From NCBI GenBank assembly GCA_964467345.1, contig CAYXPY010000007.1, positions 11,868-75,867 of the forward strand: 64,000 nucleotides of DNA, given 5' to 3'. Position 1 is the stretch's first letter. Every line of letters begins with the position of its first letter. This document shows, piece by piece, positions 5,001 to 49,370 of this stretch. This DNA comes from an uncultured Thermoplasmatales archaeon (GTDB lineage: Archaea > Thermoplasmatota > E2 > DHVEG-1). The notes beneath the pieces are model-generated. The model worked only from the letters and a program-made list of their open reading frames with translations. It was not told the origin of the DNA and ran no database searches. The position numbers were made by a program, and so were the translations under genes.

Positions 5001-7106
5001 GTGTTCACCAACACTGGAAGGTGACCAGGTGAAATATGCCTCTGGTGCGACTCCGCCAGCGTAGTTTGTGCTGCTGCTCATCCAGTTGCTTGGGTAGTTG
5101 GTTCCCCAGCCTGCTGGTGGCACGCCACCGGAGAAGTCTTCTTCAAGAAGCGTGGTGTAGAGGGCTTTGCCGATGGTCATGTGCACGTTGACGCTCTCGG
5201 CGTTCTGACCCTTGTTGAAGATGACGACCTCAGGGGTCTGGGTCTGTGCAAGACCGTTCTGTGGTGAGACGATCTCTGTTATTGCGACATCATGGAGGTA
5301 CCCGTAGTGCAGGGTGAAGGCTTTCTCCTTGTAGTCGTTCTGGGTGTTCTCATCGACAAACAGGTTGGTTGCCTCTGCGTTGTAGTTAATGTTGACATTC
5401 TCAGAGACACCAAGCGCTGCAGGTGTCCAGGTTGGGAAGGAAACCTCTAAGGTTGTGTCTGGTGCAATCGAGGGGACCGTCACAGTCTGGCTGTATTCAT
5501 TCTGCCAACTGATGATGGTAAATCCGACATCATCGATGTACCACCCGGTGTATTGAACAGACGAGTCAGAAGCGGTTTCGAACATGATTTTACAGTCTTG
5601 TCCCTCATAGGCGCTTAAATCAAAGTTGGCTTGTTTCCAGCCACCACTTTGACCATTATAGGCGGCCTGTCCAGTCATGTACGGGTTATATGCCATGGAA
5701 CCAGGGTATCCTCCAACGGGGGTGATTATCGTCCAAGTGGTTCCACCATCGTTACTGATTTTGACGTTTCCACCATCATAATTGTTCTCAAAGTAGTACC
5801 AGTGCCAGAAGTTGAACAAGGCACCACTGGGGACGGTAAACGTCGGCGTCACAAGATAACACCACATGCTGGCTGGGTAGTTCCCGGCTAGGTTTGTCGC
5901 CCAGACGTTCGCACCATTGTGAGCAGCCATTGGCCCAGAGGTCGGTGCGCCCCATTGCCATGCATCAGGCTGTGGGAGCTTTGGCGCGTGAATGTAACTG
6001 CCGTTGGTCGCCTCGAAATCCTCAACAGTTCCCGTGACGACTTCAACACCGATGTCGAGCTTAATTTGGACGTTAGTCTCGGTGTTCAACCCGATGTTCT
6101 TCACTTTAACGATCGGGGTGATCGGGCCGGCGTTGCCGCTGGCTGGTTTGACAATACCGCTGATCGCGATATCATGGTCATATTGGAACGGTAACCAGGG
6201 GATGGCGAATCCATCGACTTCCATACCGCCTTCGAAGGCACCAACCAAGGTACAGGTTAAGCCGTCTAAGGTGTACAGACCAGCTGTGCCACTTTGGGTG
6301 TACCCAGCGATGTAGAAGATCTCATTGTCTCGATCATAGGCTGGGTCCTGTGCATACAAGAACCCGATGTTCAACGCACCAAGATCCGTAGCTGCACCGG
6401 ATGCTTTGTCAACGGAGTACAGATGGCTCATACCGCTGAACAACACATCATAACCATAGATATCACCGCTGTTATCACAGATGAGACCAATCAGGGTGTT
6501 TGCGATCCCGTGAGAACCAACAACGGTGGATGTTCCTGTTAACACATCAACGGTGTATAAGCTGCCGCCACCAGTTCCATACCAGGTAGCCGTAGTTGAA
6601 TCAAAGCACAACCCGTTCATACCCGGTGAGGGGCCCATTAAGGTCATGGTTCCATCATAATCGATATGATAGATCCCACCACCGTACTCGACACCATACC
6701 AGTTACCATCTGCATCGATGTCAGCACCGCCAATGAAGTTGGGGACGATACCGGCTTGCAATGATTCGATGGCATCAGGGGTATCAAAGGTGATTGGCCC
6801 TTCTGGATGTGCACCGGAGGGATCATACGCGTTATACGCATAGAAATAACCCCTGTCTAACAGTGGTGCATGTTGGGTCGGAATTCCCTTTGTTACCAAA
6901 GGTGATAACCCATCTGCTCGTGCTATATATTCTTTGTTCTCTGCATCTAGAGCTATGACGGGTATGCTATTTTGTGTCTTAGTTTCCTGTGGCCGTATCG
7001 CTGCAGACGCTGCAGTCCCTAAAAAGAGGGCAGCGACTAGGACGACGGTCATTAGAAACATAGTCTTCGCTAGCTTACTTTTCCATACACTATGTTTTGC
7101 TTTCAT
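2055..7106 (-). CDS. Giant secreted multi-domain protein (1683 aa): signal peptide, beta-propeller-like Gly/Tyr/Asp-rich N-terminal region, four MAM/choice-of-anchor-J-like modules each ending in a [WF][YF]xDD motif, and a C-terminal Ig-like module shared with the 29608 protein
   Basis: N-terminus MKAKHSVWKSKLAKTMFLMTVVLVAALFLGTAASA. Repeated motifs TGWYIDDVGF / NYWYVDDAWLG / AWYIWVDDVTLP / NNIFFDDLSL. C-terminal ~185 aa (TLAGTMGQSEWYVSSVTVTL...DKTAPVINAFTATAQNGLKTKWLLEAD...QQQYYTLLKQL) is about 70% identical to the C-terminus of the 29608..31374 protein. Confidence 0.7.
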   Translation of the reverse strand: MKAKHSVWKSKLAKTMFLMTVVLVAALFLGTAASAAIRPQETKTQNSIPVIALDAENKEYIARADGLSPLVTKGIPTQHAPLLDRGYFYAYNAYDPSGAHPEGPITFDTPDAIESLQAGIVPNFIGGADIDADGNWYGVEYGGGIYHIDYDGTMTLMGPSPGMNGLCFDSTTATWYGTGGGSLYTVDVLTGTSTVVGSHGIANTLIGLICDNSGDIYGYDVLFSGMSHLYSVDKASGAATDLGALNIGFLYAQDPAYDRDNEIFYIAGYTQSGTAGLYTLDGLTCTLVGAFEGGMEVDGFAIPWLPFQYDHDIAISGIVKPASGNAGPITPIVKVKNIGLNTETNVQIKLDIGVEVVTGTVEDFEATNGSYIHAPKLPQPDAWQWGAPTSGPMAAHNGANVWATNLAGNYPASMWCYLVTPTFTVPSGALFNFWHWYYFENNYDGGNVKISNDGGTTWTIITPVGGYPGSMAYNPYMTGQAAYNGQSGGWKQANFDLSAYEGQDCKIMFETASDSSVQYTGWYIDDVGFTIISWQNEYSQTVTVPSIAPDTTLEVSFPTWTPAALGVSENVNINYNAEATNLFVDENTQNDYKEKAFTLHYGYLHDVAITEIVSPQNGLAQTQTPEVVIFNKGQNAESVNVHMTIGKALYTTLLEEDFSGGVPPAGWGTNYPSNWMSSSTNYAGGVAPEAYFTWSPSSVGEHRLYTMDIDTTGYTALLLKFKEYVNDYNGDYDLKIQTSIDSGATWSDAYVRAGGPYGPATTEVALTAANGVGSATFRIAWDMSGDSFNINYWYVDDAWLGIIDMVEEYDETVTVDVVAGETVNAILPDWTPSDVPFAENIDYLVDVEATLNGFAEFYTYGFEDWVPTVPPQWQPPGWMIYNVNTGNAWVRSTTGQRSGVGCAKCTYDYAVQPNDDWLATGPVVVAPGGIFELWVDTYNYGDDEYEIYMSTTGNTPADFLSGTMLAGVYYPVPGVYTQYTFDMSAYVGQTVYFAIRYIGWYAWYIWVDDVTLPDGTFVGFEDAGTPEVPGYFPGWSQYTISGTDVDNKFDGVQSGTYPTCTPHGGSWMARYACWYISSGNSKLFVKDNSFDFTTADGYAMRLWMYHDTGYSGTTDRITVCASPDGANFYLLETINRYDGSTGWKQHSIGLSAFAGLPAVWIGFYGESFYGNNIFFDDLSLLEASLMDDGYPADNVLGKIITLSYEHDAGVIAITEPSGSAPKDEGWLQYDNGVYANAFGSTTGQIYGANRFTIDEQTPYIGWDLDMIRWKHYGAVAFSGNVHIYSAGSATAPGAEITTEPFSITGDDWFEVPLSSPVTLDGSDIWLCVEGTHNTGEYPLECSAPGITLKTAFFSSDGATWYDLPGLGYDVAFEIRGHVTSGGGGDEYWLPGTYPVEGIIQNLGVTFPEIDIPVNAQITNDTGVIVYDETVVVAGPVAPGGTAVVTFPDITIPEDPDAEGDYKLTMKTVLPGDDHPNNDKKTLSWIIRIPDTTPPTTEATLAGTMGQSEWYVSSVTVTLTAYDEKWPEGVDYTMYKVDNGEWTLYETPFQVTTDGQHTVYFYSVDKAVPPNTEEEKSISFKMDKTAPVINAFTATAQNGLKTKWLLEADATDATSGIVKVEFYADDALVGEDTDGAPYEFLVESKIHTAQCIVYDAAGNSKMSDVVTSFDYGNQQQYYTLLKQL

Positions 7107-7410: not shown

Positions 7411-7413
7411 ATG

Positions 7414-9976: not shown

Positions 9977-12343
9977 CTAGGATCGGAGGAATACCAAGGG
10001 TCCCAGAAGAAACCCGGAAACAGATTTCTCAGCGACATCTGCTGTAACAAGAACCGTCACTGACCCGACGCCGAAGACAAAACCGGTTTTTATCTGGGGG
10101 CTGAACCCAGGGACGATCTTGAGTATCGTTCCCGTAGTCTCCCTTCCAAGGAGAACCACGCCACCCTGAAGAGAAATCGACCAGTTCACATCCACAGCAT
10201 CCCCAGCACCGGTGTTTGCCACCCTCGCGGTGATACCAAAACCACCGGTTATCTCAGCAATCTCTACACAGGGGGAATCTGTGATGTGAACGGTGATAGG
10301 ATCGGACCAGCCGCTTTCAATACCCGCACTGTCCTTTGCTTTCACCTTCACGGTATAGTCACCAGAGGCAGACCATTGATGTACGGCTTCTGCAGAGGCA
10401 TCAGAGTCAAACGGACCAAGCCAGTCGCTTATGCTATCACCCCAGGACCAGAGATAGTAGACCTGCTGACCCTCAGGATCGGTTGTACTAGTAATATATG
10501 AATAGTTGATAGCAGTCCCACCGGTGGTCGGACCAACAGGTTGATCAGGGTTATCCGGAGGTTGATTTGCGTTTGCTGCAGCAAGGTTCTGGACGGCATC
10601 GATATCAACAGCAGGGTTCAACTCACTGGGATTACCAGTGCCATCATCAACGATTTTTACGTAGCGGGCTGACTCCACCGAGCCAGCAGCAAGATCAAAC
10701 TCAGAAGTCCCCATCCCAGTTCCAAGCAACACCCAGGGGCCTTCCCAATCACTTGAGACATACACGGAATAGCCGTCCTCTGTTGTGTCCCCCTCGAAGA
10801 TCTTCAGGTCGTTCGCATCAGGGAAATTTGTGATCTGGTCAGCCATATCCACGATAATATATCCACCGACACCAAGCGATGCGCAGACGTCATCAGGAGG
10901 CCCGAGACAGGCGATACCCTCGGTGGGGTTCGTCTGATAATTATCGGAGGGAGCATAGTACGCGCAAGTCGTGACTTGGTATGCAAAATATTGGTTACTG
11001 GGGGTGAGTGCGACATTTAACACCGTTGGTTCTCCTTCATCGACATCAACGGTGTATGTTTTTTCCTGATACCCATTTGCTCGATAGTGGACGGTATACG
11101 TCCCAGGGAGCAGGATGCGATGATAGTCCCCAACCAAAGGATCTGTGAAACAAGGCCAGAACACCTCATCAACCCAGACGGTCGCAGCAATCGGCTGTCC
11201 GTTGTTCGCATTGGTCACCACACCGGTCAAGCCCATATCCGCTGCAGTGATGATATCCATCATCCCCTCACGATTCAGATCCCATGCTTGAGGGATGTTG
11301 GAAGTCTGCACTTCGATGGTCCAGTCGATGTCACCACGACACCCGTAACTAAAATCATTGCAATCCCCGAGGGTCTGATACCAGTCGTACCCCTCAACCA
11401 CCCAATACCCATTATGGGATGCGTACATCTCTGACAAATAGACGACGGCGTCATCGTCAGGGACACGTTGGTGTTTATAATTCCACACGTAGTTTACGAT
11501 GTTCCCGGAGCAGTGATACGACAGCGATAGCACAAAGTTATTTTCCAGTGCATTCTTGCGTATCGCTCGTGTCTCAGGCTCAGAATACGGGGTAGCGCTC
11601 TCCGGCATGTACCCATAATTTCTATTGAGATCAACCCCATGGGCATTGTATCGAGTACCTGCTTCACGTCCATCAGGATTCATCATTGGGATTATCCAAA
11701 TCTCTCTGTTGTCTACGAGGTTTGTAATCGTCGGATCAACACTATAGTTCTGGGTGAGATGAAACGCCAGATTCAGCGGAAGTTCCGCAGACATGTATTC
11801 ATTCCCATGATGAAGACCCATAATCCGAACCTCTGGTTCGTTCTCCTCGACATCCGGATTATCTGTAATCTGTAAACCCCAGATGCTCCTGCCTTGCACG
11901 CTTTTCCCAAGCTCGTGTAATCGTGCAATCTCCGGGTAGTCTGCCGCGATGTTTTGAAGTTCTGTGGTCATCTGCGCATAGTTGTGGAAATCACGAGCAA
12001 ACAAGGGAGAGAATAACCACCCGCGCTCCATTGCAATCTCATCAGGGACCAGCTTTGGAGAGAGATTCATAACCGTAAGCCAGTGATACTCCTCTGGTGA
12101 GATAAGGACAACAACAGATGTTCTAGTTTGGTCAATCTCAAGAATGGTCATTCGTTTCTGAAGTATCTGATCAAGCACGTATGAATCCGACAGCGGAACA
12201 GAGACGACAAGAGTCTCAACCGAGTATTGTGTGATGGTCTGTGCCGTGAGAAATCCCCCCAGCATCAGGGTGATGCAGAGGGTGAAAAAAACACAAAAGC
12301 TATAGGCTTTTCCAATTGTTTTCATTCGATGATTCATCTTCAA
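9977..12343 (-). CDS. Secreted zinc carboxypeptidase, peptidase family M14, with C-terminal PKD plus CARDB-like module
   Basis: M14 hallmarks YHNYAQMTTELQNIAADYPEIARLHELGKSVQGRSIWGLQIT, HHGNEYMS (HxxE zinc site), NPDGREAGTRYNAHGVDLNRNY, SYHCSG, DWTIEV. PKD segment YYLWSWGDSISDWLGPFDS...GDYTVKVKAKD. C-terminal ~100 aa parallels the 7414 protein. N-terminal hydrophobic segment. Confidence 0.85.
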   Translation of the reverse strand: MKMNHRMKTIGKAYSFCVFFTLCITLMLGGFLTAQTITQYSVETLVVSVPLSDSYVLDQILQKRMTILEIDQTRTSVVVLISPEEYHWLTVMNLSPKLVPDEIAMERGWLFSPLFARDFHNYAQMTTELQNIAADYPEIARLHELGKSVQGRSIWGLQITDNPDVEENEPEVRIMGLHHGNEYMSAELPLNLAFHLTQNYSVDPTITNLVDNREIWIIPMMNPDGREAGTRYNAHGVDLNRNYGYMPESATPYSEPETRAIRKNALENNFVLSLSYHCSGNIVNYVWNYKHQRVPDDDAVVYLSEMYASHNGYWVVEGYDWYQTLGDCNDFSYGCRGDIDWTIEVQTSNIPQAWDLNREGMMDIITAADMGLTGVVTNANNGQPIAATVWVDEVFWPCFTDPLVGDYHRILLPGTYTVHYRANGYQEKTYTVDVDEGEPTVLNVALTPSNQYFAYQVTTCAYYAPSDNYQTNPTEGIACLGPPDDVCASLGVGGYIIVDMADQITNFPDANDLKIFEGDTTEDGYSVYVSSDWEGPWVLLGTGMGTSEFDLAAGSVESARYVKIVDDGTGNPSELNPAVDIDAVQNLAAANANQPPDNPDQPVGPTTGGTAINYSYITSTTDPEGQQVYYLWSWGDSISDWLGPFDSDASAEAVHQWSASGDYTVKVKAKDSAGIESGWSDPITVHITDSPCVEIAEITGGFGITARVANTGAGDAVDVNWSISLQGGVVLLGRETTGTILKIVPGFSPQIKTGFVFGVGSVTVLVTADVAEKSVSGFLLGPLVFLRS

Positions 12344-17142: not shown

Positions 17143-17243
17143 TAAAAAAACACAAGAAAATAGGGGAGAAATAAGAAGAAGGCCTCCTTCTTTAAACACC
17201 ATCAACTATTTATGTGGATTTCCTATCTCGGGTCTTGATTACC

Positions 17244-18473
17244 ATGTCAATAAAAGCATCGAAGCGTGCTCAGGGTGTTGAGTATGCGATTCGGGATGTG
17301 CTCATTCCGGCACGACAGCTGGAGAAGAAGGGAATCACAATTTTAAAACTCAATATCGGTGATCCGAACGCATATGATTTCGACACACCACAACATATAA
17401 AAGAAGCGCTGTACAAAGCTGCAAATGAGCAACATAATGGCTATGCTCCCTCAGAGGGGTTCCTTGAATTACGCCAAGCAATCATCGAACGGGAAAAAAA
17501 GAGAAATAATGTCACCTACACCCCAGATGATATCTGTGTCACCACCGGTGTCACCGAAGGCCTTCAGATGCTGCTGAATGCATCGTTAGACCCAAAAGAC
17601 GAGTTATTGATACCTGGACCAACCTACCCGCAGTACAACGTTATCACAAAATTCGCTGATGCAGAACCGATATCGTATCATTGCATCGAAAAAGAAAACT
17701 GGCAGCCTGATGTCGATGACATCCGGCGGAAGATTACAGAACGGACCAAAGGAATTGTCCTTATCAATCCGAACAACCCGACTGGCGCGCTATATTCAAA
17801 AAAAGTGTTACAACAGATCATAGACATCGCTGGGGAACATGGTATCATGGTTATCTCTGATGAGATTTACGATGATTTAACCTTTGATGGAAAACAACAT
17901 GCGACAGCGTCACTAACAAAAGATGTCCCTGTTATAACCTTCAACGGCTTTTCAAAAGTATATGTCATGCCAGGATGGCGTATCGGATATACCTTGTTCA
18001 AACATACGGGGGACCTTGATGAGATACAAGAGGCATTTATGCGTATTGCTCGGTCACGGCTCTGCGCTAATTCAGTCTGTCAACATGCGTGTATTCAGGC
18101 GTTACGCGGACCGCAGGATCACATAGAAGAAGTGAATGATAAATTACGCAAGAGACGTGATTTCTCTTACAAACGTTTGAATGAAATCGAGGGAGTCTCT
18201 ACAGCAAAACCAGATGGCGCTTTCTATATCTTCCCAAAAATTGAGGCAATGGAGTCAGGTCCTTGGAAGAATGATAAGGAATTCGTCCTTGATTTGTTGC
18301 AGGAAGCCCATGTGCTCGTGGTCAATGGGTCAGGGTTCTGCGCCACGTATGGGAAAGACCATTTCCGAGCGGTGATTCTTCCACCGATGGAGACGCTCGA
18401 AAAAGCATTTGATGCCATGGAAATCTTTATGAAAAAGAGGTTGAAGCAACAATATAGCGTTTCTTCGAATTGA
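17244..18473 (+). CDS. Class I/II pyridoxal-phosphate-dependent aminotransferase (aspartate/alanine aminotransferase family)
   Basis: MSIKASKRAQGVEYAIRDV N-terminus. NPNNPTGALYS. FNGFSKVYVMPGWRIGY (PLP-lysine context). ORF track begins at an upstream GTG (17214); ATG at 17244 is the likelier start. Confidence 0.8.
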   Translation: MSIKASKRAQGVEYAIRDVLIPARQLEKKGITILKLNIGDPNAYDFDTPQHIKEALYKAANEQHNGYAPSEGFLELRQAIIEREKKRNNVTYTPDDICVTTGVTEGLQMLLNASLDPKDELLIPGPTYPQYNVITKFADAEPISYHCIEKENWQPDVDDIRRKITERTKGIVLINPNNPTGALYSKKVLQQIIDIAGEHGIMVISDEIYDDLTFDGKQHATASLTKDVPVITFNGFSKVYVMPGWRIGYTLFKHTGDLDEIQEAFMRIARSRLCANSVCQHACIQALRGPQDHIEEVNDKLRKRRDFSYKRLNEIEGVSTAKPDGAFYIFPKIEAMESGPWKNDKEFVLDLLQEAHVLVVNGSGFCATYGKDHFRAVILPPMETLEKAFDAMEIFMKKRLKQQYSVSSN

Positions 18474-18543
18474 TGCCAGTGAATTATTTCCCATAAATAA
18501 GAATATAAATTAACAACATATACTCTATCTTGAGGTAAGGTAA

Positions 18544-18789
18544 ATGGAGGAAAATGAACCAAACATTTTTAACAGCCCGAAACTGAATGAATACAAAGCC
18601 ATGGAAACAAAACTGTATGGAGAGATATTGAAATCTTGTCGTTTTTATCAAAACAAACTAACTCTGATTTCTATTCTTGGCATTCTGGAGCTTGTCAGTC
18701 AGGATATTAGAGAATTAGACAAGACGAATGTGAAAAATGCTGAACAGGAGATTATTAGCAATCGAGATTTGTTGAATCGTTTGATATAA
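18544..18789 (+). CDS. Small hypothetical protein (81 aa)
   Basis: ORF with GAGGT RBS-like motif 6 nt upstream of ATG. No recognisable domain. Confidence 0.35.
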   Translation: MEENEPNIFNSPKLNEYKAMETKLYGEILKSCRFYQNKLTLISILGILELVSQDIRELDKTNVKNAEQEIISNRDLLNRLI

Positions 18790-18964
18790 GTTTTTTTTAT
18801 CCCAATTCATTTTCCTTTTTATTTCCTTACTTAGTTCGTAAGATTTTTTTTGTAAAGGAATATATTAGTATATATTTTTATATATATTTAATGTAGGGAA
18901 AATACAAGATATCATCAAAAGATTAAAGAAGAAAAGGGAGTTTAAGAACCCTGAGGAACACCCT

Positions 18965-19258
18965 ATGATTGTCGCATCACTAAGCATCGCGCCGCTCGGA
19001 AAAGGAACCAGCGTAAGCAGCTACGTAAGAATCGTCCTAGAAACCCTCAAAAAAGAACAGATAACCTACAAAACAAACGCAATGTCAACAGTCATCCAAA
19101 CAAAGGATTTGGAAACCCTATTCAGTGTGATCCAGAAAGCACATCACGCGGTGGCAACGGCAGGGGCAGAACGAATCATCACAGAAATAAAAATCGATGA
19201 CCGACGAGACAAAGAAGCAACAATCGACACTAAACTCCAATCAGTCCAACAAAAATAA
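18965..19258 (+). CDS. MTH1187/YkoF-family protein (DUF77, thiamine-binding-like fold)
   Basis: MIVASLSIAPLGKGTSVSSYV...AMSTVIQTKDLETLFSVIQKAHHAV...RIITEIKIDDRRDK closely follows the MTH1187 family pattern. Confidence 0.7.
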   Translation: MIVASLSIAPLGKGTSVSSYVRIVLETLKKEQITYKTNAMSTVIQTKDLETLFSVIQKAHHAVATAGAERIITEIKIDDRRDKEATIDTKLQSVQQK

Positions 19259-19283
19259 ACACAAAGGGTTTCAAAACAGTTAT

Positions 19284-19904
19284 ATGGCCCATCTTCATTT
19301 CGGGTTGCGGGAAGGTAATATCGTGTCATCAAAATCCTTAGTGGAAATATGTTTTCATGGACGAGGCGGACAAGGCGCAGTGACAGCCGCTAACCTTCTT
19401 GCAAGCGCAGCCTTACAAGATGGTAACAAAGGCGTTCAAGCGTTCCCATTCTTTGGTGCAGAACGAAGAGGAGCCCCGGTTAGAGCATTTGCCCGAATAT
19501 CGGGAGAAGAAATCCACTTACGAAGCGAAATCTACAATCCGGATATCGTCATCGTCCTTGACGAAAGCATCATGGAGCTCGTCGATGTGCTGAAAGGGGT
19601 TAAAGACGATGGGAAAATCCTAATAAACACCAGACGGAAACCCCAGGATTTCGAGTTTTCAAAAACCTATCATGTCGCAACCGTTGATGCAACAGCAATA
19701 GCACTCAAATATGAAATTCTTGTCGGCGGAATCCCTGTCGTCAACACACCAATCCTTGGTTCGGTGCCGAAGATATTAGATCGGGTCACCCTCCAATCGA
19801 TACAACAGGTGATTCTCGGGAAATGGACTGGTAAAAAAGAACTCGGGGAGCGAAACAGGAAGGCTACGCAGGATGCATACGATCAGACGGAGGTGAACTT
19901 TTGA
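19284..19904 (+). CDS. porG: Pyruvate/2-oxoacid:ferredoxin oxidoreductase gamma subunit
   Basis: EICFHGRGGQGAVTAANLLASAA...FPFFGAERRGAPV signature. The ORF-track start at 19197 overlaps the upstream gene. ATG at 19284 (or the GTG just before EICFHG) is more plausible. Confidence 0.8.
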   Translation: MAHLHFGLREGNIVSSKSLVEICFHGRGGQGAVTAANLLASAALQDGNKGVQAFPFFGAERRGAPVRAFARISGEEIHLRSEIYNPDIVIVLDESIMELVDVLKGVKDDGKILINTRRKPQDFEFSKTYHVATVDATAIALKYEILVGGIPVVNTPILGSVPKILDRVTLQSIQQVILGKWTGKKELGERNRKATQDAYDQTEVNF

Positions 19905-20173
19905 AGAAATACCCAGTTGAGACCAGTCTGTCCTATCCGAAAAAAGGTGCAATGGGAAAAACAGGCAGCTGGCGCGTATTCAAACCCATCCTTGACAAAA
20001 AAAAATGTGTCAAATGCCTCCGATGTTGGATCTTTTGCCCTGAAGGCTGCATCCGTCGTGAGAAGGATGATTCAGTCAGCATCGATTACGATTACTGTAA
20101 AGGCTGCGGCGTCTGCGCCAACGAATGCAACGTCAAAGCAATCATCATGGAACGAGAGGAGGCAAAGAAATAA
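19901..20173 (+). CDS. porD: Pyruvate:ferredoxin oxidoreductase delta subunit (2x[4Fe-4S] ferredoxin)
   Basis: CVKCLRCWIFCPEGCI and CKGCGVCANECNVKAI cluster motifs. ATGA overlap with porG. Confidence 0.85.
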   Translation: MKKYPVETSLSYPKKGAMGKTGSWRVFKPILDKKKCVKCLRCWIFCPEGCIRREKDDSVSIDYDYCKGCGVCANECNVKAIIMEREEAKK

Positions 20174-21327
20174 TGACAATCATGATGGATACCGGGAACC
20201 GTATCGCGGCAAAAGCAGCAATCATGGCAAAACCAGAGGTTGTGGCAGCATACCCCATCACACCACAGACGACACTTGTCGAGGCCATCGCAGAATATGT
20301 CGCCAACGGCGAATACAAAGGAGAATATATCTGCGTGGAAAGTGAACATTCCGCAATGTCTGCCTGCATTGGGGCAAGTGCGGCAGGCTCACGGACGTTT
20401 ACTGCGACCTCATCCCATGGCTTGTTATTGATGCATGAGATGCTCCATTGGGCGGCCCTTGCACGACTCCCGGTTGTCATGTGCAACATCAACCGGGTTA
20501 TAGGACCAGGATGGAACATCTGGGTTGACGAGAACGATTCGATTTCACAAAGAGACACCGGATGGATTCAATATTACTGTAGTAGCAACCAGGAGATTTT
20601 TGACACGGTCATTCAAGCATTCAAACTCGCAGAACATGAAAAAGTCGTCTTACCAGTCATGGTGAACCTCAACGCATTTATCCTCTCACATACCTCAATG
20701 CCTGCAGAAATCCCAAAACAACAGGTGATCGATGACTTTCTCGGAAAATATATCGCACAATGGAAAAGCGATGTCGAGAACCCCACCACCTTTGGCAACA
20801 TCATCGGTCCAGCACATTACTATAAGATACGACGAGCAATGCAAGACGCACAGAACCACGCAAAAAAACTCATCCCGCAGATTGCAAAAGATTGGAAAAA
20901 AGCCTCAGGATACTTCCATGGGGATTTATTGGAACATTACAGATGCGACGATGCAGAACACATCCTCCTGTCGATGGGTGCGATTGGGGCAGAAAGCAAA
21001 ATCGCTATCGATAATTTACAAAAAGAAGGACATAAAATCGGTCTTGCCCGCGTCCGGGTAATACGACCGTTTCCCACAGAAGACATCATCAAATTGGGGA
21101 AACAAGCAAATCTCATCGTCATCGATAGGAACATCTCTGTTGGTTTAGAAGGTGTTCTTTTCAATGAAACAAAAGCAGCATTATATAACAAGGCTGATAC
21201 AAAAGTAACCGGTTTCATCGCAGGTCTCGGTGGAAAAGACGTCACCTATAAGGACATTGAAACTATGTGTAAAAAAGCAATACAAGGCTCACTTGCAGAA
21301 CAAGAATGGTACGCGATGGAGGACTAA
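20173..21327 (+). CDS. porA: Pyruvate:ferredoxin oxidoreductase alpha subunit
   Basis: MTIMMDTGNRIAAKAAIMAKPEVVAAYPITPQT...EHSAMSACIGASAAGSRTFTATSSHGLLLM typical POR alpha. Start ATG overlaps porD TAA (TAATG). The ORF-track N-extension is rejected. Confidence 0.85.
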   Translation: MTIMMDTGNRIAAKAAIMAKPEVVAAYPITPQTTLVEAIAEYVANGEYKGEYICVESEHSAMSACIGASAAGSRTFTATSSHGLLLMHEMLHWAALARLPVVMCNINRVIGPGWNIWVDENDSISQRDTGWIQYYCSSNQEIFDTVIQAFKLAEHEKVVLPVMVNLNAFILSHTSMPAEIPKQQVIDDFLGKYIAQWKSDVENPTTFGNIIGPAHYYKIRRAMQDAQNHAKKLIPQIAKDWKKASGYFHGDLLEHYRCDDAEHILLSMGAIGAESKIAIDNLQKEGHKIGLARVRVIRPFPTEDIIKLGKQANLIVIDRNISVGLEGVLFNETKAALYNKADTKVTGFIAGLGGKDVTYKDIETMCKKAIQGSLAEQEWYAMED

Positions 21328-21330
21328 ACA

Positions 21331-22242
21331 ATGGCACTAAAAGATTTCCCCATTGATGAATGCCTTCTTCAAGGAAACGCAGCCTGCCCAGGATGCCCAG
21401 CAACAATCGGACTGCGCCTGGTGCTCAAGGCACTGGGAAAAAAGACCGTCATGGTTGTCCCAGCGTGTTGTACAGCAGTCATTGAAAGCCTGTATCCCTA
21501 TACCTCCTTTGACATCCCTGTTATGAACATTGCTTTTGAGGCAGCAGCTGCAGGTGCATCTGGTGTCGAGGCAGCATTACGACAGCAGGGACGCACAGAC
21601 ATTACCGTGGTCGCATGGGCTGGAGATGGGGGCACCTATGACATCGGTATCCAGGCACTCTCAGGTGCATTAGAAAGAGGAACCAATTTCATATACATCT
21701 GCTACAACAATCAGATCTACTCCAACACCGGTATCCAACGCAGTGGAGCGACCCCCTTTGCAGCATGGACCACGACGACCGTGGGTGGGAAAAATGAGTT
21801 CAGAAAAGAGATGGGAGAAATCATCCTTGCCCATCACATCCCTTATGCGGCTCAGACATGCATCAGCTATCCTGAGGACGTCTACAATAAAATAACAAAA
21901 GCAAAGAGCATCAAAGGCCCAAAATACATCGAGATCCTCGCACCCTGCCCTCCAGGTTGGCGATTCAGCATGGACAAAACCGTAGAGATGGGAAGATTAG
22001 CTGTTGATTCCGGTGCCTGGTCATTGTGGGAATGTGAAAACGATGCGATGACGTTTAACGGTAAAAGCAAGCTTCTTTTAGAAAAAAAGATCCCTCGTAA
22101 ACCGGTGGAGGACTGGATAAAGTACCAAGGGCGTTTCAGCCATCTTTTCAAACCACAGCGAGATGAGAAACGACTCAAAGCAATAGAGGAGTACGTTGAT
22201 AACATCTGGGAACGCTACCGAAAATGCTATCTGAAAGAGTAA
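21331..22242 (+). CDS. porB: Pyruvate:ferredoxin oxidoreductase beta subunit (TPP-binding)
   Basis: GCPGCPATIGLRLVLKALG...AWAGDGGTYDIG...CYNNQIYSNTG TPP-binding motifs. Confidence 0.85.
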   Translation: MALKDFPIDECLLQGNAACPGCPATIGLRLVLKALGKKTVMVVPACCTAVIESLYPYTSFDIPVMNIAFEAAAAGASGVEAALRQQGRTDITVVAWAGDGGTYDIGIQALSGALERGTNFIYICYNNQIYSNTGIQRSGATPFAAWTTTTVGGKNEFRKEMGEIILAHHIPYAAQTCISYPEDVYNKITKAKSIKGPKYIEILAPCPPGWRFSMDKTVEMGRLAVDSGAWSLWECENDAMTFNGKSKLLLEKKIPRKPVEDWIKYQGRFSHLFKPQRDEKRLKAIEEYVDNIWERYRKCYLKE

Positions 22243-36344: not shown

Positions 36345-38876
36345 ATGATGAAGAAAATAATGGGAATTTTTGTTTGTACGCTGATGATAAGTGGTGCACT
36401 GGTAAGCGCTCAGAACCTTTTAAATGACAAGAAAGAATTCAATAACGATACTGGAACTCTTACTGTGACGATACCGATAGGTCCCTATCAAATCGTTGAA
36501 GAAAAACAAGGCTTTGAAGTGGAAATTGAGAGTTTCGGACGTCTGCTTATACCAGGAAAACCAAGCCTACCATCCAAGATATTTTCTATCGCAATCCCTC
36601 CGGGTGCAACAATCCAGGACGTTACTTTTGAAGCAAAAACTAGCACTGTTCTTCCAGGTGAATATAAAATAGCACCCAACCCGTTACCACGAGTTATTGG
36701 TGCAGAGGATTCAGTTCTTCGAGATAGCGATCAACAACAATACGAGGAAAACCTAAAATCCGTCTATAGCCAAGATAACCCTTATCCTGAGACAATCGGA
36801 GAGCTTGTCGGAACCGGTGGGTATCGAAAATATAACCTCGTCGATGTCAGAATCACCCCAGTCATCTATTATCCTGTTTCTGGTAAATTGATGTACTATC
36901 AAGACATCATCGTTCAAGTTCAATATACGATTCCAGAGAAATTTTCCGCTGGGGACATCATGGTGGACAACCTCGTAAAAACAGAGGAAAACGCCAAGAA
37001 GATTGTTTTTAACTATGATGCTGCTCAGGAATGGTACCCAATAAATATACCCGGAGGCCGAGAACAGTATGATTATGTAATCATTACACTTGATTCTCTG
37101 ACCTCGGCGGTAACGCCCTTGGTCGATTGGGAAAGTGCCAAAGGAAGCAGTGTGAGCGTTGTCACAACCAGCTGGATTAGTAACAACTATGAGGGATATG
37201 ACCTTGCCGCAAAGATGCGGGAATTCTTACGTGACAAGTATCCCTCAGGTACATGGGGAATCACAGATGTATGTCTTGTGGGTGGTTACGATGATGTCCC
37301 CATACGACGTACCGCACAGAATGTCGGGTATGGACAGCCGGAGACTGATTATTACTATGCAGAGTTATCCCTCCCCGATAGTGAATCCTGGGATGCCAAT
37401 GGGAACCATCAGTATGGAGATGACTCCGATCCTATCGATTTTGAAACAGAAATCGTCGTCGGTCGTATTCCTTGGAGCGACCCGGACGTTGTCCAGAGTA
37501 TCTGTGAAAAATCTGTTGCCTATGAGCAGAATAATGATGATACGTTTAAGAAGAACATCCTTCTGCTTGGTGCGTTCTTCTGGTCAGATACAGACAACGC
37601 GGTTCTTATGGAATATAAGACAAATCCATCGAACTACCCATGGATGTCTGACTGGACGAAAACAAAACTCTATGAGGATACCCAATCACAGTATCCCTGT
37701 GACTATGACTTAAGTTACAGTAATGTCGAATCAGTATGGTCTGAGGGAACGTATGCGTTTGTGAACTGGGCAGGGCATGGATCACCGACCGCATGTTACG
37801 AATATTATCCATCCCAGCCATTTGTTAGTACGGATACCTGTCTTCAGTTAAACGATGAGTACCCAGCGATTATCTTCGCTGATGCCTGTAGCAACTCTGA
37901 TACTGATAATCTCAATATTGGACAAGCGATGCTGAAACAAGGCGGTGTTGGTTTCCTTGGGGCAACAAAGGTCGCTTATGGGATGCCTGCTTGGAATGAC
38001 CCCTATGATGGTTCAAGTCAATCATTAGATTGCTTCTTCACAACCCATGTGACCTCTGGGGAATACACGCAAGGAGAGGCACATCAATGGTCATTGAGGG
38101 AGATGTATGTCAATGATTTATGGTACTACCCGAAATATGAGATGTTCCAATGGGGTGCCCTCTGGGGAAATCCCTCCCTGAGCATGGGAACAGTGACGAC
38201 GAGCAATCCTCCAGCGACTCCAGCAGAACCATCTGGCCCAACACATGGTGTCCGGGAGGTAGAATACATTTTTTCAAGCAGTAGCACAGACCCAGATGGG
38301 GATCAAATCTTCTATATGTTCAGCTGGGATGATGGAACCTCAAGTCAATGGCTTGGTCCGTATTCAACAGGGGTTACGGCTTCTGCCTCACATTCATGGT
38401 CTGAACTTGGCACTTATAATGTGAAAGTAAAAGCAAAAGATACGAATGGCGCAACAAGTGATTGGTCCCAGCCCCATGAGATATCCATTGTCTTAAACGA
38501 TGCACCGGACATCCCAACAATCTCAGGACCCGGAACGGGAGCTCCAGGTAAGAATTACTTGTTTAAGATGCAAACGGTCGATATCAATGGAGATGATGTG
38601 TACTACTTCATTGACTGGGGTGATGGTACAACCACTGAATGGATCGGCCCGTTTGCCTCAGGAACACAAGCGACAACAACCCATAGTTGGAGTGAAGAAG
38701 GAACGTATACAGTCAAGGTGAAAGCAAAAGACATAGCAGGTGACGAGAGCGACTGGGGAACGATGGATGTGGTGATGCCTTTTAACTATCGGTTTTCGCT
38801 ACAGACATTTCTTGAGAACCTCTTTGAGATGTTCCCTCGTCTGTTTCTAGTTCTTCAGCAGCTTTTAGGGTATTAA
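36345..38876 (+). CDS. Secreted peptidase C25 (gingipain-like) with two C-terminal PKD domains and a Gln/Leu-rich C-terminal tail
   Basis: Signal peptide MMKKIMGIFVCTLMISGALVSA. YDYVIITLDSLTSAVTPLVDWESAKG...LVGGYDD. His/Cys context WAGHGSPTA and IIFADACSNSD. PKDs FYMFSWDDGTSSQWLGPYS...GTYNVKVKAKD and YYFIDWGDGTTTEWIGPFAS...GTYTVKVKAKD. Tail RLFLVLQQLLGY. GAGGT RBS. Confidence 0.75.
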   Translation: MMKKIMGIFVCTLMISGALVSAQNLLNDKKEFNNDTGTLTVTIPIGPYQIVEEKQGFEVEIESFGRLLIPGKPSLPSKIFSIAIPPGATIQDVTFEAKTSTVLPGEYKIAPNPLPRVIGAEDSVLRDSDQQQYEENLKSVYSQDNPYPETIGELVGTGGYRKYNLVDVRITPVIYYPVSGKLMYYQDIIVQVQYTIPEKFSAGDIMVDNLVKTEENAKKIVFNYDAAQEWYPINIPGGREQYDYVIITLDSLTSAVTPLVDWESAKGSSVSVVTTSWISNNYEGYDLAAKMREFLRDKYPSGTWGITDVCLVGGYDDVPIRRTAQNVGYGQPETDYYYAELSLPDSESWDANGNHQYGDDSDPIDFETEIVVGRIPWSDPDVVQSICEKSVAYEQNNDDTFKKNILLLGAFFWSDTDNAVLMEYKTNPSNYPWMSDWTKTKLYEDTQSQYPCDYDLSYSNVESVWSEGTYAFVNWAGHGSPTACYEYYPSQPFVSTDTCLQLNDEYPAIIFADACSNSDTDNLNIGQAMLKQGGVGFLGATKVAYGMPAWNDPYDGSSQSLDCFFTTHVTSGEYTQGEAHQWSLREMYVNDLWYYPKYEMFQWGALWGNPSLSMGTVTTSNPPATPAEPSGPTHGVREVEYIFSSSSTDPDGDQIFYMFSWDDGTSSQWLGPYSTGVTASASHSWSELGTYNVKVKAKDTNGATSDWSQPHEISIVLNDAPDIPTISGPGTGAPGKNYLFKMQTVDINGDDVYYFIDWGDGTTTEWIGPFASGTQATTTHSWSEEGTYTVKVKAKDIAGDESDWGTMDVVMPFNYRFSLQTFLENLFEMFPRLFLVLQQLLGY

Positions 38877-38909: not shown

Positions 38910-39446
38910 ATGCACAAAAAAAATACATTCAGGACATCGTTCATCCTTCTTATGCTGTGCACTGTAGCTCTTAGTGGATGTATGGATGAGGGGAATAAAC
39001 CAAATCTTGGTTATGTCAATGAGGAATATGGGTTTGGATTAAATCCACCCAAAGGATGGATTGTGAATGAACAAAGCTACGATCCAGTCAAGTTTTTTTG
39101 CCCCGATCAAAACGACTATCAAGTTCATATTGTTATTAATAGACCTGTGAATCTTAATCAAACACTCGAGGAAATCGCAGATGAGCTTTTAAAGAGTTAT
39201 GAAGAATCTTATTTTAGGAATTTTTCTCTGATCTCACGCACGCCGAAAACAATCAATACCATGAACGCATACGAACTCGTATACCAGGAAGGTAGAGAAC
39301 CAAACATGTTGCAACACAAACAAATTCTGTATCAAAAAGATGATATAGTCTTTACTCTCACATATAACTCACTTGTTCGTACATATGATACCTACATCTC
39401 TGTTGTTGATGAGAGCATTGACTCTTTTGTGATTTTATCAACCTAA
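38910..39446 (+). CDS. Putative lipoprotein, hypothetical
   Basis: MHKKNTFRTSFILLMLCTVALSGCMDE lipobox-like. Confidence 0.5.
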   Translation: MHKKNTFRTSFILLMLCTVALSGCMDEGNKPNLGYVNEEYGFGLNPPKGWIVNEQSYDPVKFFCPDQNDYQVHIVINRPVNLNQTLEEIADELLKSYEESYFRNFSLISRTPKTINTMNAYELVYQEGREPNMLQHKQILYQKDDIVFTLTYNSLVRTYDTYISVVDESIDSFVILST

Positions 39447-39684: not shown

Positions 39685-40635
39685 ATGAAAAAACAAATAA
39701 CAATCATCCTAACAATCGTCTTAATCAGCACTATCATCATAAGCGGATGTAATGAACAACAATCACCAAAAATCTCAACATTTGAAATCACACCAAACGA
39801 AATCGAATTAGGCCAAACAAGTCAATTACGCTGGGTCGTATCAGAGGCTACTACAGTAACTATCGATCAGGGCATTGGTATAGTCCCATTGTCTGGAAAC
39901 AGAACAATAACACCAACAGAAACAACCACATTTACCATCACTGCAAAAACATCAACAGAAACAACCACAGCAACAGCACAAATCATTGTTAACGAACCAT
40001 ATGTACAACCTAATGTAAGCATGTTACAATCAGAATTTTACATAGAAATAATAAAGATTGAGAATTCTCGGGTTCAACAATCCTTAGTCTCCATCGTTGT
40101 AATAAATAAAAACAACAGCGAAAATCAGACAGCCATCCTAAGACCAACCATAATAGAGGGTGACGGAAATAAAAATTATTTGGCAGCAGGAGACGTTATT
40201 ATTTTCCAGAATCTCTCGGAATTTCCAGTTAAACAATTATGGGACATCATACTTTATTACCGAGGAGATGTGATTGGCCAGATAATCTTTAGAAATCCAC
40301 CAGGTCCGTACAATAGCCCGAGAGTCCGTATAGCACAAGTTAAATCTAATGTCACAATCATTGGGATAATAAATGGACCGATCAATCAGACTCAAATCTC
40401 GGTTGTGGCCATAAATAGAACCAGCGGTTCAATACAAACCTCCATGATTGGACCATCTATCATTGATAATGATAACAATCAAAATATTCTTTCAATCGAT
40501 GATTGGATAACATTTAGCAATCTAGGGAAATTTAAAGCTAATGATCAATGGGCAATCCAATTGAAACACGGTGATGATGTTATTGGCCAATGCATATTTA
40601 CTAACCCACGGGTAATCAATATTATACCTACATAA
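39685..40635 (+). CDS. Putative lipoprotein with two internal ~120-aa repeats
   Basis: MKKQITIILTIVLISTIIISGCNEQQ. Repeats ILRPTIIEGDGNKNYLAAGDVIIFQNL...GDVIGQIIFRNP and MIGPSIIDNDNNQNILSIDDWITFSNL...DDVIGQCIFTNP. Confidence 0.5.
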   Translation: MKKQITIILTIVLISTIIISGCNEQQSPKISTFEITPNEIELGQTSQLRWVVSEATTVTIDQGIGIVPLSGNRTITPTETTTFTITAKTSTETTTATAQIIVNEPYVQPNVSMLQSEFYIEIIKIENSRVQQSLVSIVVINKNNSENQTAILRPTIIEGDGNKNYLAAGDVIIFQNLSEFPVKQLWDIILYYRGDVIGQIIFRNPPGPYNSPRVRIAQVKSNVTIIGIINGPINQTQISVVAINRTSGSIQTSMIGPSIIDNDNNQNILSIDDWITFSNLGKFKANDQWAIQLKHGDDVIGQCIFTNPRVINIIPT

Positions 40636-41054: not shown

Positions 41055-43037
41055 TTAGACATCAATGCGCACAGGCAATATAACCACAGGTAAACCTTTC
41101 CATTGCAATCGACGTTGAATAGAAAACGCTGTCTCATTGTGAAGAATCTTATGAAATATCGTTTCATGACGGAACACAAGTTTTGCGGTGAAGAACATGA
41201 CTTTTGGAAATTCTTCTGCTATTGATTCACACAGATGGCTTGCAGTCTCGACAACGTCAGTACCTATATCCATGCGATAATCAGCGGAAAACCCAAGTCT
41301 TTGAGCGAGAGTCACATATTTGAGTAATGAGCTTTGAACAGATGTTTTAAGTGCTTCGATTTCTTCAGCCCCTTTGAAAGACCCAGAATCTATTTCTGCG
41401 ATTGATACAAAAATAATGTTCTTATAGAGGCCGGGAAAGTTCCTGATTAATGATAAAAATGTATTGACCCCATACCCAGAATAACCCGTTACAAGGATAA
41501 CCGCAGTCATATGCTTTGGATTCACCGGCTTCGTATTCAAATGTCCAACAAGATGGATACTTGATAAAAGTAAAATTTCATCGAATTTTTTCATTGCTTT
41601 TTTGATCTTATTATAATGATTATGAATAAGGTAACAGACGATGACTACAGCTAATGTGATAATTAATGTAAGCCAACCACCTTGCACAAATTTTTCATAG
41701 ATAGTGATGATAAGGATTGTAAAACAAAGAATAAACCCTACAATAAAAATGAAAAGATATCGAATCCAATGTTGTTTTTTTACTCTGTCTTTTATTGTTA
41801 ATTTCGTCATTCCGATTTGTGAGAGAGAGAATGTGAGAAACACGTTAATAGCATACATTATCACTAAGACGGATATCGACCCCTCAGTTCCAATCATTAA
41901 TAGAAGAGCGGCAATACCCATGACCATCACCCCATTGCGCATTGTTAATCTCTCTGATAATGCAGAAAATTTTTTTGGGAACCATGAATCGACTGCCATA
42001 TTAGCCATGACACGAGGACCATCGATAAAACCAGTTTGTGCAGCGACAAACAAAAGTAAACCTTCAGAAAATATAATAACTGTTGCAATAAAAAAACCCG
42101 CAGGCCATCCGCTAAAAAGAGTACTTGCAAGGACAGCATTTAACGTCTGACCCTCAACAGGTTGAATGTTCAGGAGGAAATAGCAGATGATGAGAGTCCC
42201 AGCCACAAGAGATAGAGAAATTGCCATGTAAAGCATCGTTCGTTTACCAGTTTTTACCTTTGGTTCTCTCATTACAGGAAGACCATTTGATACTGCTTCA
42301 ATTCCTGTGTATGTCCCACCACCCAATGAAAAAGCACGTAGGAAAATTGCAAGTATGCCAAGAACCCCAATCATTTGCAAATCTCCATTTAATCCTGTTG
42401 AAAACTCATTAATACGAGTTCCGATAACTGTAACTTGACTAAAAATCCCATAACCTAATAAAAGGACATGGCTGACAATAAAAAGGAGAAAGATTGGCGC
42501 AAGGAATGTAACTGATTCTTTAACACCTCTAAGATTCAAAATGATTAATATAAAGATCAAAGAAATTTTAAAGAGAAGTTTGTATTGATGGAATTCTAAG
42601 GGTAAAAAACTAAAAATGGCATCCCCACAAGCAGCAATCGAAACCGTTATTGTAAGGATATAATCGACAAGAAGTGCTGAACCAGAGATAACGCCTGCAT
42701 TTTTACCAAGGGTATGCGTCGCAACAATGTACCCCCCGCCTCCATGTGGAAACTGTTCAATGATTTTTGAATAGGTATATGAAATCACAAAAACAGTGAC
42801 TGCTGTCGCAATCGCCAAAAAAATCGCAAGATACGTATGCCCCGCGATAGCCTTGAACGCCTCCTCGGGACCATACGAGGACGATGATAAACCATCAGCT
42901 CCAAGACCAATCCAGGAAAGTAACGCTATTAAAGATATTTTATGAAAAATTGAAGGGTCTTTGATATTGTGTGGACGACCAATAATCTTTGTTGAAATCC
43001 TGCGAAGTATGCTTGGCGGAGGCGCATCGTCGTCCAT
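41055..43037 (-). CDS. APC-superfamily amino-acid permease with ~200-aa cytoplasmic C-terminal domain
   Basis: Twelve predicted hydrophobic helices. GGGYIVATHTLGKNAG...FSEGLLLFVAAQTGF typical of amino acid/polyamine permeases. C-terminal soluble extension. Confidence 0.7.
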   Translation of the reverse strand: MDDDAPPPSILRRISTKIIGRPHNIKDPSIFHKISLIALLSWIGLGADGLSSSSYGPEEAFKAIAGHTYLAIFLAIATAVTVFVISYTYSKIIEQFPHGGGGYIVATHTLGKNAGVISGSALLVDYILTITVSIAACGDAIFSFLPLEFHQYKLLFKISLIFILIILNLRGVKESVTFLAPIFLLFIVSHVLLLGYGIFSQVTVIGTRINEFSTGLNGDLQMIGVLGILAIFLRAFSLGGGTYTGIEAVSNGLPVMREPKVKTGKRTMLYMAISLSLVAGTLIICYFLLNIQPVEGQTLNAVLASTLFSGWPAGFFIATVIIFSEGLLLFVAAQTGFIDGPRVMANMAVDSWFPKKFSALSERLTMRNGVMVMGIAALLLMIGTEGSISVLVIMYAINVFLTFSLSQIGMTKLTIKDRVKKQHWIRYLFIFIVGFILCFTILIITIYEKFVQGGWLTLIITLAVVIVCYLIHNHYNKIKKAMKKFDEILLLSSIHLVGHLNTKPVNPKHMTAVILVTGYSGYGVNTFLSLIRNFPGLYKNIIFVSIAEIDSGSFKGAEEIEALKTSVQSSLLKYVTLAQRLGFSADYRMDIGTDVVETASHLCESIAEEFPKVMFFTAKLVFRHETIFHKILHNETAFSIQRRLQWKGLPVVILPVRIDV

Positions 43038-48713: not shown

Positions 48714-48731
48714 TCAAATTCCTATACTTTA

Positions 48732-49370
48732 TTATTCCCACGATATTCTGAATTCATGATACTCGTCACCGTTATATTGACATTTTGTTTCTTTTATAGT
48801 AAGATTTGGAAAAGTTCCTATCAATTCGACAACACCAATGATATATCCTGAAAGATATGTACAGTAAAGTGGATGAGTTATGAAATTTCTCAGTCGAACA
48901 ATAAAAAAATGTTCATCTTCATGAAGTTCGCCAGGATCCATACTTCCAACGGTATAATGCCTTTGCCAATGACGTGGTATCTCTCTTGCCATCTTTTTCA
49001 GACTGACTAAATACCGCAACGTCAACTTGGTGAAGAACGAACTTTTCGTCGCTAAACGTCCTATCTCTTTAATTTGATAATCATCTAAATGGAATACCTT
49101 TTTTATCGATAGAAGAGATGCGATACGTAACGATAAAGGGATAAGGTCCGTAGGAGATAAAGGGGAACTAAACCGGAAAGAAAAACCCATTTTTTCCATT
49201 TCTTTTTCTACAAGAGATACACCGTTTTCACTATCTTGAATTTCAATATAGATTTTATCAGTTTGGAGGGTAACTGCTTTAGCAAATCCTTTAATTTGGC
49301 TTATGTCCTGAACAGTATCATTTATCAACATTTCTTCCTCACTTCCAACCGTTTTTTTTATTTTCTTCAA
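48732..49370 (-). CDS. V4R-domain-like protein (putative small-molecule-binding regulator)
   Basis: C-terminal YCTYLSGYIIGVVELIGTF resembles the V4R C..aGy..G signature. Overlaps next gene by 32 nt. Confidence 0.4.
   Translation of the reverse strand: MKKIKKTVGSEEEMLINDTVQDISQIKGFAKAVTLQTDKIYIEIQDSENGVSLVEKEMEKMGFSFRFSSPLSPTDLIPLSLRIASLLSIKKVFHLDDYQIKEIGRLATKSSFFTKLTLRYLVSLKKMAREIPRHWQRHYTVGSMDPGELHEDEHFFIVRLRNFITHPLYCTYLSGYIIGVVELIGTFPNLTIKETKCQYNGDEYHEFRISWE

Follow-up and report, generated by a model that had tools for sequence, protein, structure and literature searches.

The open reading frame (ORF) at positions 36345–38876 of a 64,000-nt stretch of DNA from an uncultured Thermoplasmatales archaeon (contig CAYXPY010000007.1; hereafter the window, meaning the whole stretch) very probably encodes the exported zymogen of a cysteine endopeptidase of the gingipain family (MEROPS C25, clan CD), as judged from sequence comparison and structure modelling, in a Thermoplasmatota archaeon that is probably a member of the Thermoprofundales (MBG-D, for marine benthic group D) or a close relative. 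This protein is one of four C25 proteins in the window, which we named A to D and matched to PF01364 (Peptidase_C25; gathering score, 23 bits):

36345..38876, plus strand: protein A, 843 residues; PF01364 E 1.9e-37, 129.8 bits
7414..9768, minus strand: protein B, 784 residues, with signal peptide, prodomain, Kgp-like catalytic domain, PKD domain and a cassette of ~100 residues; PF01364 E 2.5e-66, 224.9 bits
62780..63997, minus strand: protein C, last 405 of ~642 residues, N-terminus past the window end; PF01364 E 7e-41, 141.1 bits
1..1836, minus strand: protein D, first 612 of 901 residues, C-terminus before the window start; PF01364 E 1.6e-15, 57.7 bits

All four scores exceed the PF01364 threshold, which bears out the C25-like ORFs that an earlier reading of the letters alone (the sequence-only reading) had placed here, and Pfam assigned the four proteins to C25 and clan CD. 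The paired motifs that it had listed were likewise all found, namely AGHGS/ADACSN in A, SGHG/SHACS in B, EGHGN/GGCHNG in C, and GIAHAN/YGCHCG in D. The gingipain-type prodomain (PF08126, Propeptide_C25) was recognized in A (E 8e-11), B (E 1.7e-12), and D (E 2.3e-13), as well as in many orthologs of C, the N-terminus of which lies outside the window. Two further sequences complement the truncated proteins: P0121, which is full-length D (100% identical), and P0241, a C ortholog (94% identical). The claim that all four proteins carry signal peptides held for A, B, and D, where these are readable; for C, it is the ortholog P0241 that opens with a signal-like hydrophobic segment. Similarly, the fusion to PKD domains attributed to most of them stood for A (two domains), B (one, recognized through PDB entry 4xed with E 5e-22), and D (two, seen in P0121 beyond the window), but not for C, which has none.

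Protein A reads as a secreted precursor, with the following layout:

36345..36410, plus strand: signal peptide, residues 1–22, MMKKIMGIFVCTLMISGALVSA, read from the sequence
36447..37034, plus strand: gingipain-type prodomain, about residues 35–230 (Propeptide_C25 at residues 69–202)
37074..38189, plus strand: catalytic domain, about residues 244–615, supported by AlphaFold and Foldseek
37776..37778, plus strand: codon of His478 (WAGHGSP), aligned with RgpB His211
37887..37889, plus strand: codon of Cys515 (ADACSNS), aligned with RgpB Cys244 and, through B, with Kgp Cys477
38217..38780, plus strand: two PKD domains, PKD1 at residues 625–715 and PKD2 at residues 718–812 (Pfam PKD, PKD_4)
38781..38873, plus strand: conserved tail, residues 813–843 (31 residues), FNYRFSLQTFLENLFEMFPRLFLVLQQLLGY; family consensus LFERFPNAFPILRHLLGY

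An AT-rich spacer of 293 bp precedes the gene, whose ribosome-binding site (GAGGT) is found 8 nt upstream of its ATG. A scan for sigma-70 promoters and terminators around A performed no better than on shuffled sequence, the sigma-70 model being unsuited to an archaeon. The prodomain yielded weak profile matches to those of RgpB and Kgp (4ief_A, 5mun) and appeared as a folded beta-sandwich in a first AlphaFold model, whereas PKD2 matched PDB entry 4xed with E 2e-29; the PKD domains were modelled with a predicted local distance difference test score (pLDDT) of ~90. Entry 4xed is a PKD domain from an M14 peptidase, which probably comes from the MBG-D single-cell genome AB-540-F20. More than 120 full-length orthologs of A were found at 57–100% identity, some of them named 'C25 family cysteine peptidase [Thermoplasmatota archaeon]'.

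The predicted fold, compared for A alone, is that of the gingipains. An alignment of 115 sequences across subfamilies allowed the catalytic domain to be modelled well, with a pLDDT of 94.2 and a predicted template modelling score of 0.92 for residues 230–620. Foldseek searches of the PDB with this model returned RgpB (1cvr) first (E 5e-19, template modelling (TM) score 0.71) and then Kgp (E 3e-15), followed only by distant CHAT/caspase-like proteins. A first AlphaFold run, on full-length A with 19 close orthologs, gave a pLDDT below 50 over residues 398–553 and was dropped for fold comparison. Sequence, conserved residues, and predicted fold thus all support the membership of A in C25 and clan CD.

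Alignments with characterized C25 enzymes, the check attached to the original proposal, placed the catalytic His and Cys of A, B, and C on those of RgpB or Kgp. In a profile made of A and 18 orthologs, His478 (WAGHGSP) and Cys515 (ADACSN) fall on His211 and Cys244 of RgpB, and both are invariant in the 19-sequence A family. Alignment of A with B by hhalign (probability 99.9%, E 8e-32) likewise paired the His and the Cys of the two proteins. Protein B, in turn, matches Kgp (E 5e-35) and RgpB (E 1.5e-33) directly, and its His452, Cys485, Asp398, and Asp523 align residue by residue with His444, Cys477, Asp388, and Asp516 of Kgp, the first three being the Kgp triad and Asp516 its S1 (lysine-pocket) residue. 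The two Asp codons of B lie at these positions:

8200–8202, minus strand: B Asp523, at the Kgp Asp516 position
8575–8577, minus strand: B Asp398, at the Kgp Asp388 position

The C family profile aligned with RgpB at E 2e-19, with the GHG His (His231) on His211 and the Cys of GGCHNG (Cys276) on Cys244. In addition, Asp180 of C (window numbering; 63458–63460) occupies the position of RgpB Asp163, and 13 of the 15 family members have Asp there. Asp163 being the arginine-pocket residue of RgpB, the Asp pattern of B and C hints at Lys- and Arg-specific enzymes encoded in one genome.

Several results weigh against this gingipain-family reading. The alignments identified neither a third catalytic residue nor the S1 specificity of A, and the stretch holding Kgp Asp388 is deleted from A in the hhalign output. 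A phmmer search of the PDB with A recovered PKD domains only, and no gingipain, and the profile stretch spanning its His and Cys contributed just 6.7 bits. Finally, hhalign of D against B placed Cys566 on the catalytic Cys, but set His535 downstream of the canonical position by two residues. Since the direct similarity of A to gingipains is weak, the case for their relationship is built on Pfam, on the hhalign link by way of B, and on fold prediction. As to D, its His535 codon (GIAHAN; 232–234 of the window) sits two residues C-terminal to the usual G-H-G position, and the His–Cys spacing is 31 residues instead of the 33 of gingipains and B. Both AHA (His535) and GCH (Cys566) are invariant in the D family, and it is the invariance of this His in 16 orthologs that argues for genuine variation in the active-site loop. 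The D residues line up with the other His and Cys in the 115-sequence MAFFT alignment. The D family profile matched only prodomain and PKD entries of the PDB, stopping short of the catalytic region, and hhalign of D against C ended before the His. The alignment of the catalytic His with RgpB and Kgp is therefore only partly settled for D, and for D alone.

The four proteins share with the gingipains of P. gingivalis (RgpB and Kgp; 1cvr, 4ief, 4rbm) the Pfam family, the prodomain family, and the aligned dyad, and the A model shares their fold (best Foldseek matches, TM 0.64–0.71); the Kgp Asp388 and S1 Asp516 equivalents are retained in B, and the RgpB Asp163 equivalent in C. They differ in their archaeal host and, for A, in an identity of only 15–18% in the structural alignment. 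Moreover, Pfam and NCBIfam models revealed neither the C-terminal sorting domain of the type IX secretion system (T9SS) nor haemagglutinin/adhesin domains in the window C25 proteins, which end instead in PKD plus the 31-residue tail (A, D), in PKD plus the ~100-residue cassette (B), or in no added module (C). By sequence, they are members of the gingipain family and not gingipain orthologs. To our knowledge, no archaeal C25 peptidase has been characterized biochemically.

PKD followed by the tail (consensus LFERFPNAFPILRHLLGY) ends A and most members of the D family, and the tail is kept in A orthologs. It also occurs in ORFs of other loci (L003, ending at 8613; L011, ending at 5784; L012, minus strand, ending at 4951; L048, minus strand, ending at 3998). 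We searched 1.84 billion proteins with a profile of 42 positions, covering the last PKD strand and the tail, at E ≤ 1e-3, and 1205 cluster representatives were matched. Nearly all of the top 150 matches end at the last residues of the protein. Among the 93 longer matches, 63 different Pfam families are represented, such as NosD/beta-helix, PQQ propellers, FG-GAP, LamG, cadherin-like, and M14 domains, and one tail-bearing protein is named as a C1A protease. A signal-like N-terminus was present in 69 of the 87 Met-initiated matches; tail-bearing proteins are probably exported. The tail itself is strongly amphipathic, with top 19-residue Kyte–Doolittle windows of 0.3–1.0, too polar to span a membrane. 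No Pfam or NCBIfam model, including PGF-CTERM and PEF-CTERM, matched it even at E ≤ 5, and literature searches on the tail motif and on PDB entry 4xed returned nothing relevant. PKD plus tail thus has the signature of a candidate sorting or anchoring signal. We put forward tentatively, as a possibility that we think rather less than even, that the last PKD domain and the tail form an undescribed general surface sorting/anchoring signal in Thermoplasmatota; in its boldest form, a co-resident C25 subfamily would process the tail in the manner of PorU.

PorU is the C25-like sortase of the T9SS, a system of which we know no instance in archaea. An alternative to nutritional proteases is that one or more of the four C25 proteins are PorU-like sorting transpeptidases that cut the PKD-plus-tail or cassette signal and attach exported proteins to the cell surface. 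The C25-like nature of PorU speaks for it, as does a widespread tail on unrelated exported proteins that has no known sorting enzyme, and A, B, and C do match the PorU and PorU2 models (NCBIfam NF033707, NF052324) at E 4e-8 to 6e-16. These matches amount to a distant, family-level likeness, though, as their 29–57 bits are about ten-fold below the model cutoffs of 420–450, and gingipains match better in both sequence and fold. The window proteins, unlike PorU, have gingipain-type prodomains, and each genome holds several copies and subfamilies. A and most D-family members end in the tail themselves, and since their own C-termini carry it, they look like cargo. We therefore consider a sortase function highly unlikely and favor exported endopeptidases.

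Two more C-terminal modules were noted beside the tail. The ~100-residue cassette that follows PKD (PC[IV]EI..I.GG.G...A.I.NTGAG....VNWSI..QGG..LLGR...) ends both B (7414–7730) and the adjacent M14 protein (9977–10290), as well as archaeal A-type homologs in loci L017, L036, and L063; it appears, from these sequences, that cassette and tail are interchangeable on the same protease core. Domain models gave nothing significant for the B/M14 cassette (best, CARDB with E 0.064). A third shared module is a C-terminus of 185 residues, with OmpL47-type barrel, Big_7, and DUF7743 matches, that is 64% identical between a 1683-residue protein (residue-coding stretch 2055–2620) and the ORF 29608–31374 (30784–31374).

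We then asked how the four C25 proteins relate to one another. BLASTP identities were 25% for A/B, 25.5% for A/D, and 20% for B/D, and C yielded no BLASTP match to A, B, or D. With A, C, and D as ortholog queries (B was not used as a query), each returned more than 100 orthologs at 57–100% identity among the 120 best matches listed, many from Thermoplasmatota. B-type copies at 49–51% identity turned up in four related loci, and in loci L022 and L023, A, B, and D types are adjacent as separate genes. Because pairwise identity is low and A, C, and D each have orthologs of their own, we regard the four as anciently diverged subfamilies that are co-resident in one genome, not as recent duplicates.

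In the gene cluster at 1–12343, B and D lie with two other genes:

9977..12343, minus strand: M14 zinc carboxypeptidase, 788 residues; PF00246 E 3.8e-46, 158 bits (cutoff, 21.6)
2055..7106, minus strand: secreted multidomain protein between B and D, 1683 residues, with MAM/choice-of-anchor-J and OmpL47-type barrel domains

The M14 protein adds CarboxypepD_reg, PKD, and the cassette of B to its peptidase domain, the PKD-plus-cassette ends of both proteins being 52.6% identical over 194 residues. The proposed M14 exo-carboxypeptidase adjoining a C25 gene and sharing its C-terminal cassette is thereby corroborated. Its motifs HGNE, NRNY, YH, and IEV occur in order and contain what we take, from carboxypeptidase A numbering, to be the zinc, substrate, and catalytic residues. 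Pfam and NCBIfam searches found no peptidase domain in the 1683-residue protein.

Four C25 genes within 64 kb, the co-directional arrangement of M14, B, the 1683-residue protein, and D with gaps of 208–307 bp, and the tandem A-type duplicates in loci L004, L011, and L002 could suggest a recent, lineage-specific duplication burst that produced one dedicated, co-regulated proteolytic locus. We judge this very improbable. Identities of 20–25%, or no detectable similarity, hardly fit recent copies; A, C, and D have their own orthologs in many Thermoplasmatota, with B-type copies in four related loci; in L022 and L023, orthologs of A, B, and D already stand next to each other as distinct genes; and A occupies a conserved syntenic block among housekeeping genes. 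For the same reasons of divergence and orthology, the 'expansion' of the sequence-only reading, in the sense of recent duplication, was overstated. Its 'dedicated extracellular proteolytic system' also overreaches, as only M14, B, the 1683-residue protein, and D cluster, whereas A and C lie among housekeeping genes, apart from 1–12343. Old subfamilies remain our preferred account of the set.

The 1–12343 cluster also stands out in composition, with a GC content of 0.48–0.53 and a GC content at third codon positions (GC3) of 0.50–0.63, against a GC3 of 0.27–0.47 in most other window genes; this could reflect either foreign origin or expression-linked codon bias.

Loss of catalysis was weighed next. 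The multiple PKD and Ig-like surface modules, together with the distance of A from characterized gingipains (15–18% identity, as above), would be compatible with catalytically dead C25 domains that serve as adhesins or binding modules. We find this hardly credible, given that His and Cys are invariant in the MAFFT alignment of 115 sequences from four subfamilies, where they make up two of only eight invariant columns within the A catalytic fragment, and that the GHG and xxC strand contexts are kept in the C25 families. Prodomains are retained as well, for which an active zymogen is the sole sensible reading.

Archaeal marker genes are present in the window (Hjc, aTrm56, archaeal phosphopantothenate synthetase, PAC2, RtcB, HMG-CoA reductase), and A, C, and D have their closest homologs in metagenome-assembled genomes (MAGs) labelled Thermoplasmatales, Thermoplasmata, or Thermoplasmatota, among them SM1-50, M9B2D, and 3300003432D, in agreement with the archaeal origin proposed earlier. 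The latter three are Thermoprofundales (MBG-D) genomes according to PMC6461988, and they hold direct orthologs of the window C25 genes. Protein identities of 60–93% suggest that the organism is probably a Thermoplasmatota archaeon in or near the Thermoprofundales.

The surroundings of A are conserved. The order Fer4 protein, A, PsbP-like lipoprotein, 316-residue lipoprotein, and amino-acid permease is kept in about eight related archaeal MAGs. The genes downstream of A, and a catabolic group elsewhere in the window, are as follows:

38910..39446, plus strand: PsbP/DcrB-like lipoprotein, 178 residues, lipobox LSGC, 34 bp past A; PF18933 E 1.8e-12; placement kept in eight loci
39685..40635, plus strand: 316-residue lipoprotein, lipobox ISGC; syntenic in eight loci
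41055..43037, minus strand: amino-acid permease, 660 residues; PF13520 E 3e-19
17214..22242, plus strand: aminotransferase (PF00155 E 1.6e-69) and three 2-oxoacid:ferredoxin oxidoreductase subunits (POR, POR_N/PFOR_II, TPP_enzyme_C)

The 316-residue lipoprotein had no family match in Pfam or NCBIfam. The permease is 86–88% identical and syntenic in loci L002, L005, L007, L010, and L039, and the genes at 17214–22242 fit amino-acid fermentation downstream of the proteases.

A-type cores, that is, prodomain and catalytic domain and often one PKD, also occur in bacteria. A genome scan found them at 55–66% identity to A in MAGs of Zixibacteria, Ignavibacteria, Planctomycetota, Gemmatimonadota, and WOR-3 (loci L025–L077; for example, L046 5962–8331, L025 6606–8927, and L059 5911–8991), several of them on contigs of 100–200 kb. 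These sediment-bacterial C25 genes are likewise multi-copy and often stand in tandem arrays (L025, L033, and L034), and dockerin-like repeats take the place of the archaeal tail at the end of most copies inspected. Pfam Dockerin_1 itself matched only two ORFs neighboring the C25 gene of L046, one of which also matched an M6 peptidase weakly, and not the C25 protein. A scan of L046 revealed no archaeal markers, which is not by itself proof that such contigs are bacterial. In a neighbor-joining tree, to be taken as indicative only, a mainly archaeal clade that includes A separated from a mainly bacterial one, with a few interleaved labels and a few archaeal-labelled sequences at the base of the bacterial clade; one interleaved label belongs to a 2-kb contig and may stem from faulty binning. 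The shared core, the different C-termini, and the separate clades point to a protease core that moved between domains of life and had its surface-attachment module replaced. A rival account, in which the contig is chimeric or misbinned and its C25 genes are of bacterial origin, has on its side these 55–66% identical cores in Zixibacteria, Ignavibacteria, Planctomycetota, and Gemmatimonadota MAGs and the GC3 of 1–12343, well above the rest of the window, but its likelihood is negligible, given that A is flanked by archaeal genes in an order kept across many Thermoplasmatota MAGs, that bacterial copies mostly form their own clade (with a few archaeal-labelled sequences at its base) and have different, mostly dockerin-like ends, that archaeal copies bear the archaeal tail or cassette, and that orthologs of D and B are common across Thermoplasmatota.

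A plausible sequence of events can be drawn for A as an archaeal exported zymogen. The Sec signal peptide would export the protein, and the gingipain-type prodomain would hold it inactive until cleavage. The His478/Cys515 dyad of the caspase-like alpha/beta domain would then cleave extracellular proteins, while the two PKD domains and the amphipathic 31-residue tail may keep the enzyme at the cell surface or sort it there. Acting as an endo- and exo-acting set, C25 and M14 peptidases would free peptides and amino acids, to be imported, for instance, through the syntenic permease (41055–43037) and presumably catabolized by the aminotransferase and the 2-oxoacid:ferredoxin oxidoreductase (17214–22242).

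This protease–uptake–catabolism model is one already proposed for these archaea. Thermoprofundales MAGs are reported to have multiple C25 genes whose products are predicted to be extracellular and whose transcript levels are high (PMC6461988), and C25 genes are also reported on predicted plasmids in 27 Thermoprofundales genomes (PMC9585477). For White Oak River sediment, PMC6752024 reports that C25 genes account for 41–45% of signal-peptide-bearing peptidase genes, along with fast hydrolysis of Arg substrates; of the exported peptidases predicted in anoxic estuarine sediments, C25 is the most frequent kind. The earlier view of C25 as a mark of protein-degrading sediment archaea agrees with these reports of multi-copy, transcribed genes, which cite Lloyd et al. 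2013 (PMC6461988, PMC9585477, PMC6752024). They concern the same lineage and gene family as the window. Multi-copy, expressed C25 in Thermoprofundales being already published, the observation is correct yet largely known, and its novelty is low.

The idea that buried protein is remineralized by Thermoprofundales and other benthic archaea has C25 peptidases at its center. In concept, the window brings nothing new to this picture, but it offers a clean annotated example with four deep subfamilies. In their available parts, the three papers treat C25 as one annotation class, whereas at least four deep subfamilies are distinguished here, and the alternative C-terminal modules and the synteny of subfamily A were not found in those same parts (PMC6461988, PMC9585477, PMC6752024). 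The sequences hint at one Kgp-like subfamily with a lysine-pocket Asp, one with an RgpB-type Asp, and two without specificity assignment, and this set, together with the confident catalytic-domain model, could help in selecting proteins for expression. Of most interest here are the tail module and the swap of modules between domains of life: the generic PKD-plus-tail C-terminus bears on how these archaea display surface enzymes, and the exchange of tail and dockerin-like ends on one core bears on the movement of proteases between domains of life in sediments.

Apart from the peptidases, the window contains several histidine-kinase and multi-PAS sensor genes at 14561–17142 and 47349–51624. One sensor gene encodes five PAS domains and has a V4R-domain neighbor, no adjacent response regulator being noticed; the sensor genes at 47–51 kb have the lowest GC3 of the window (0.27–0.28).

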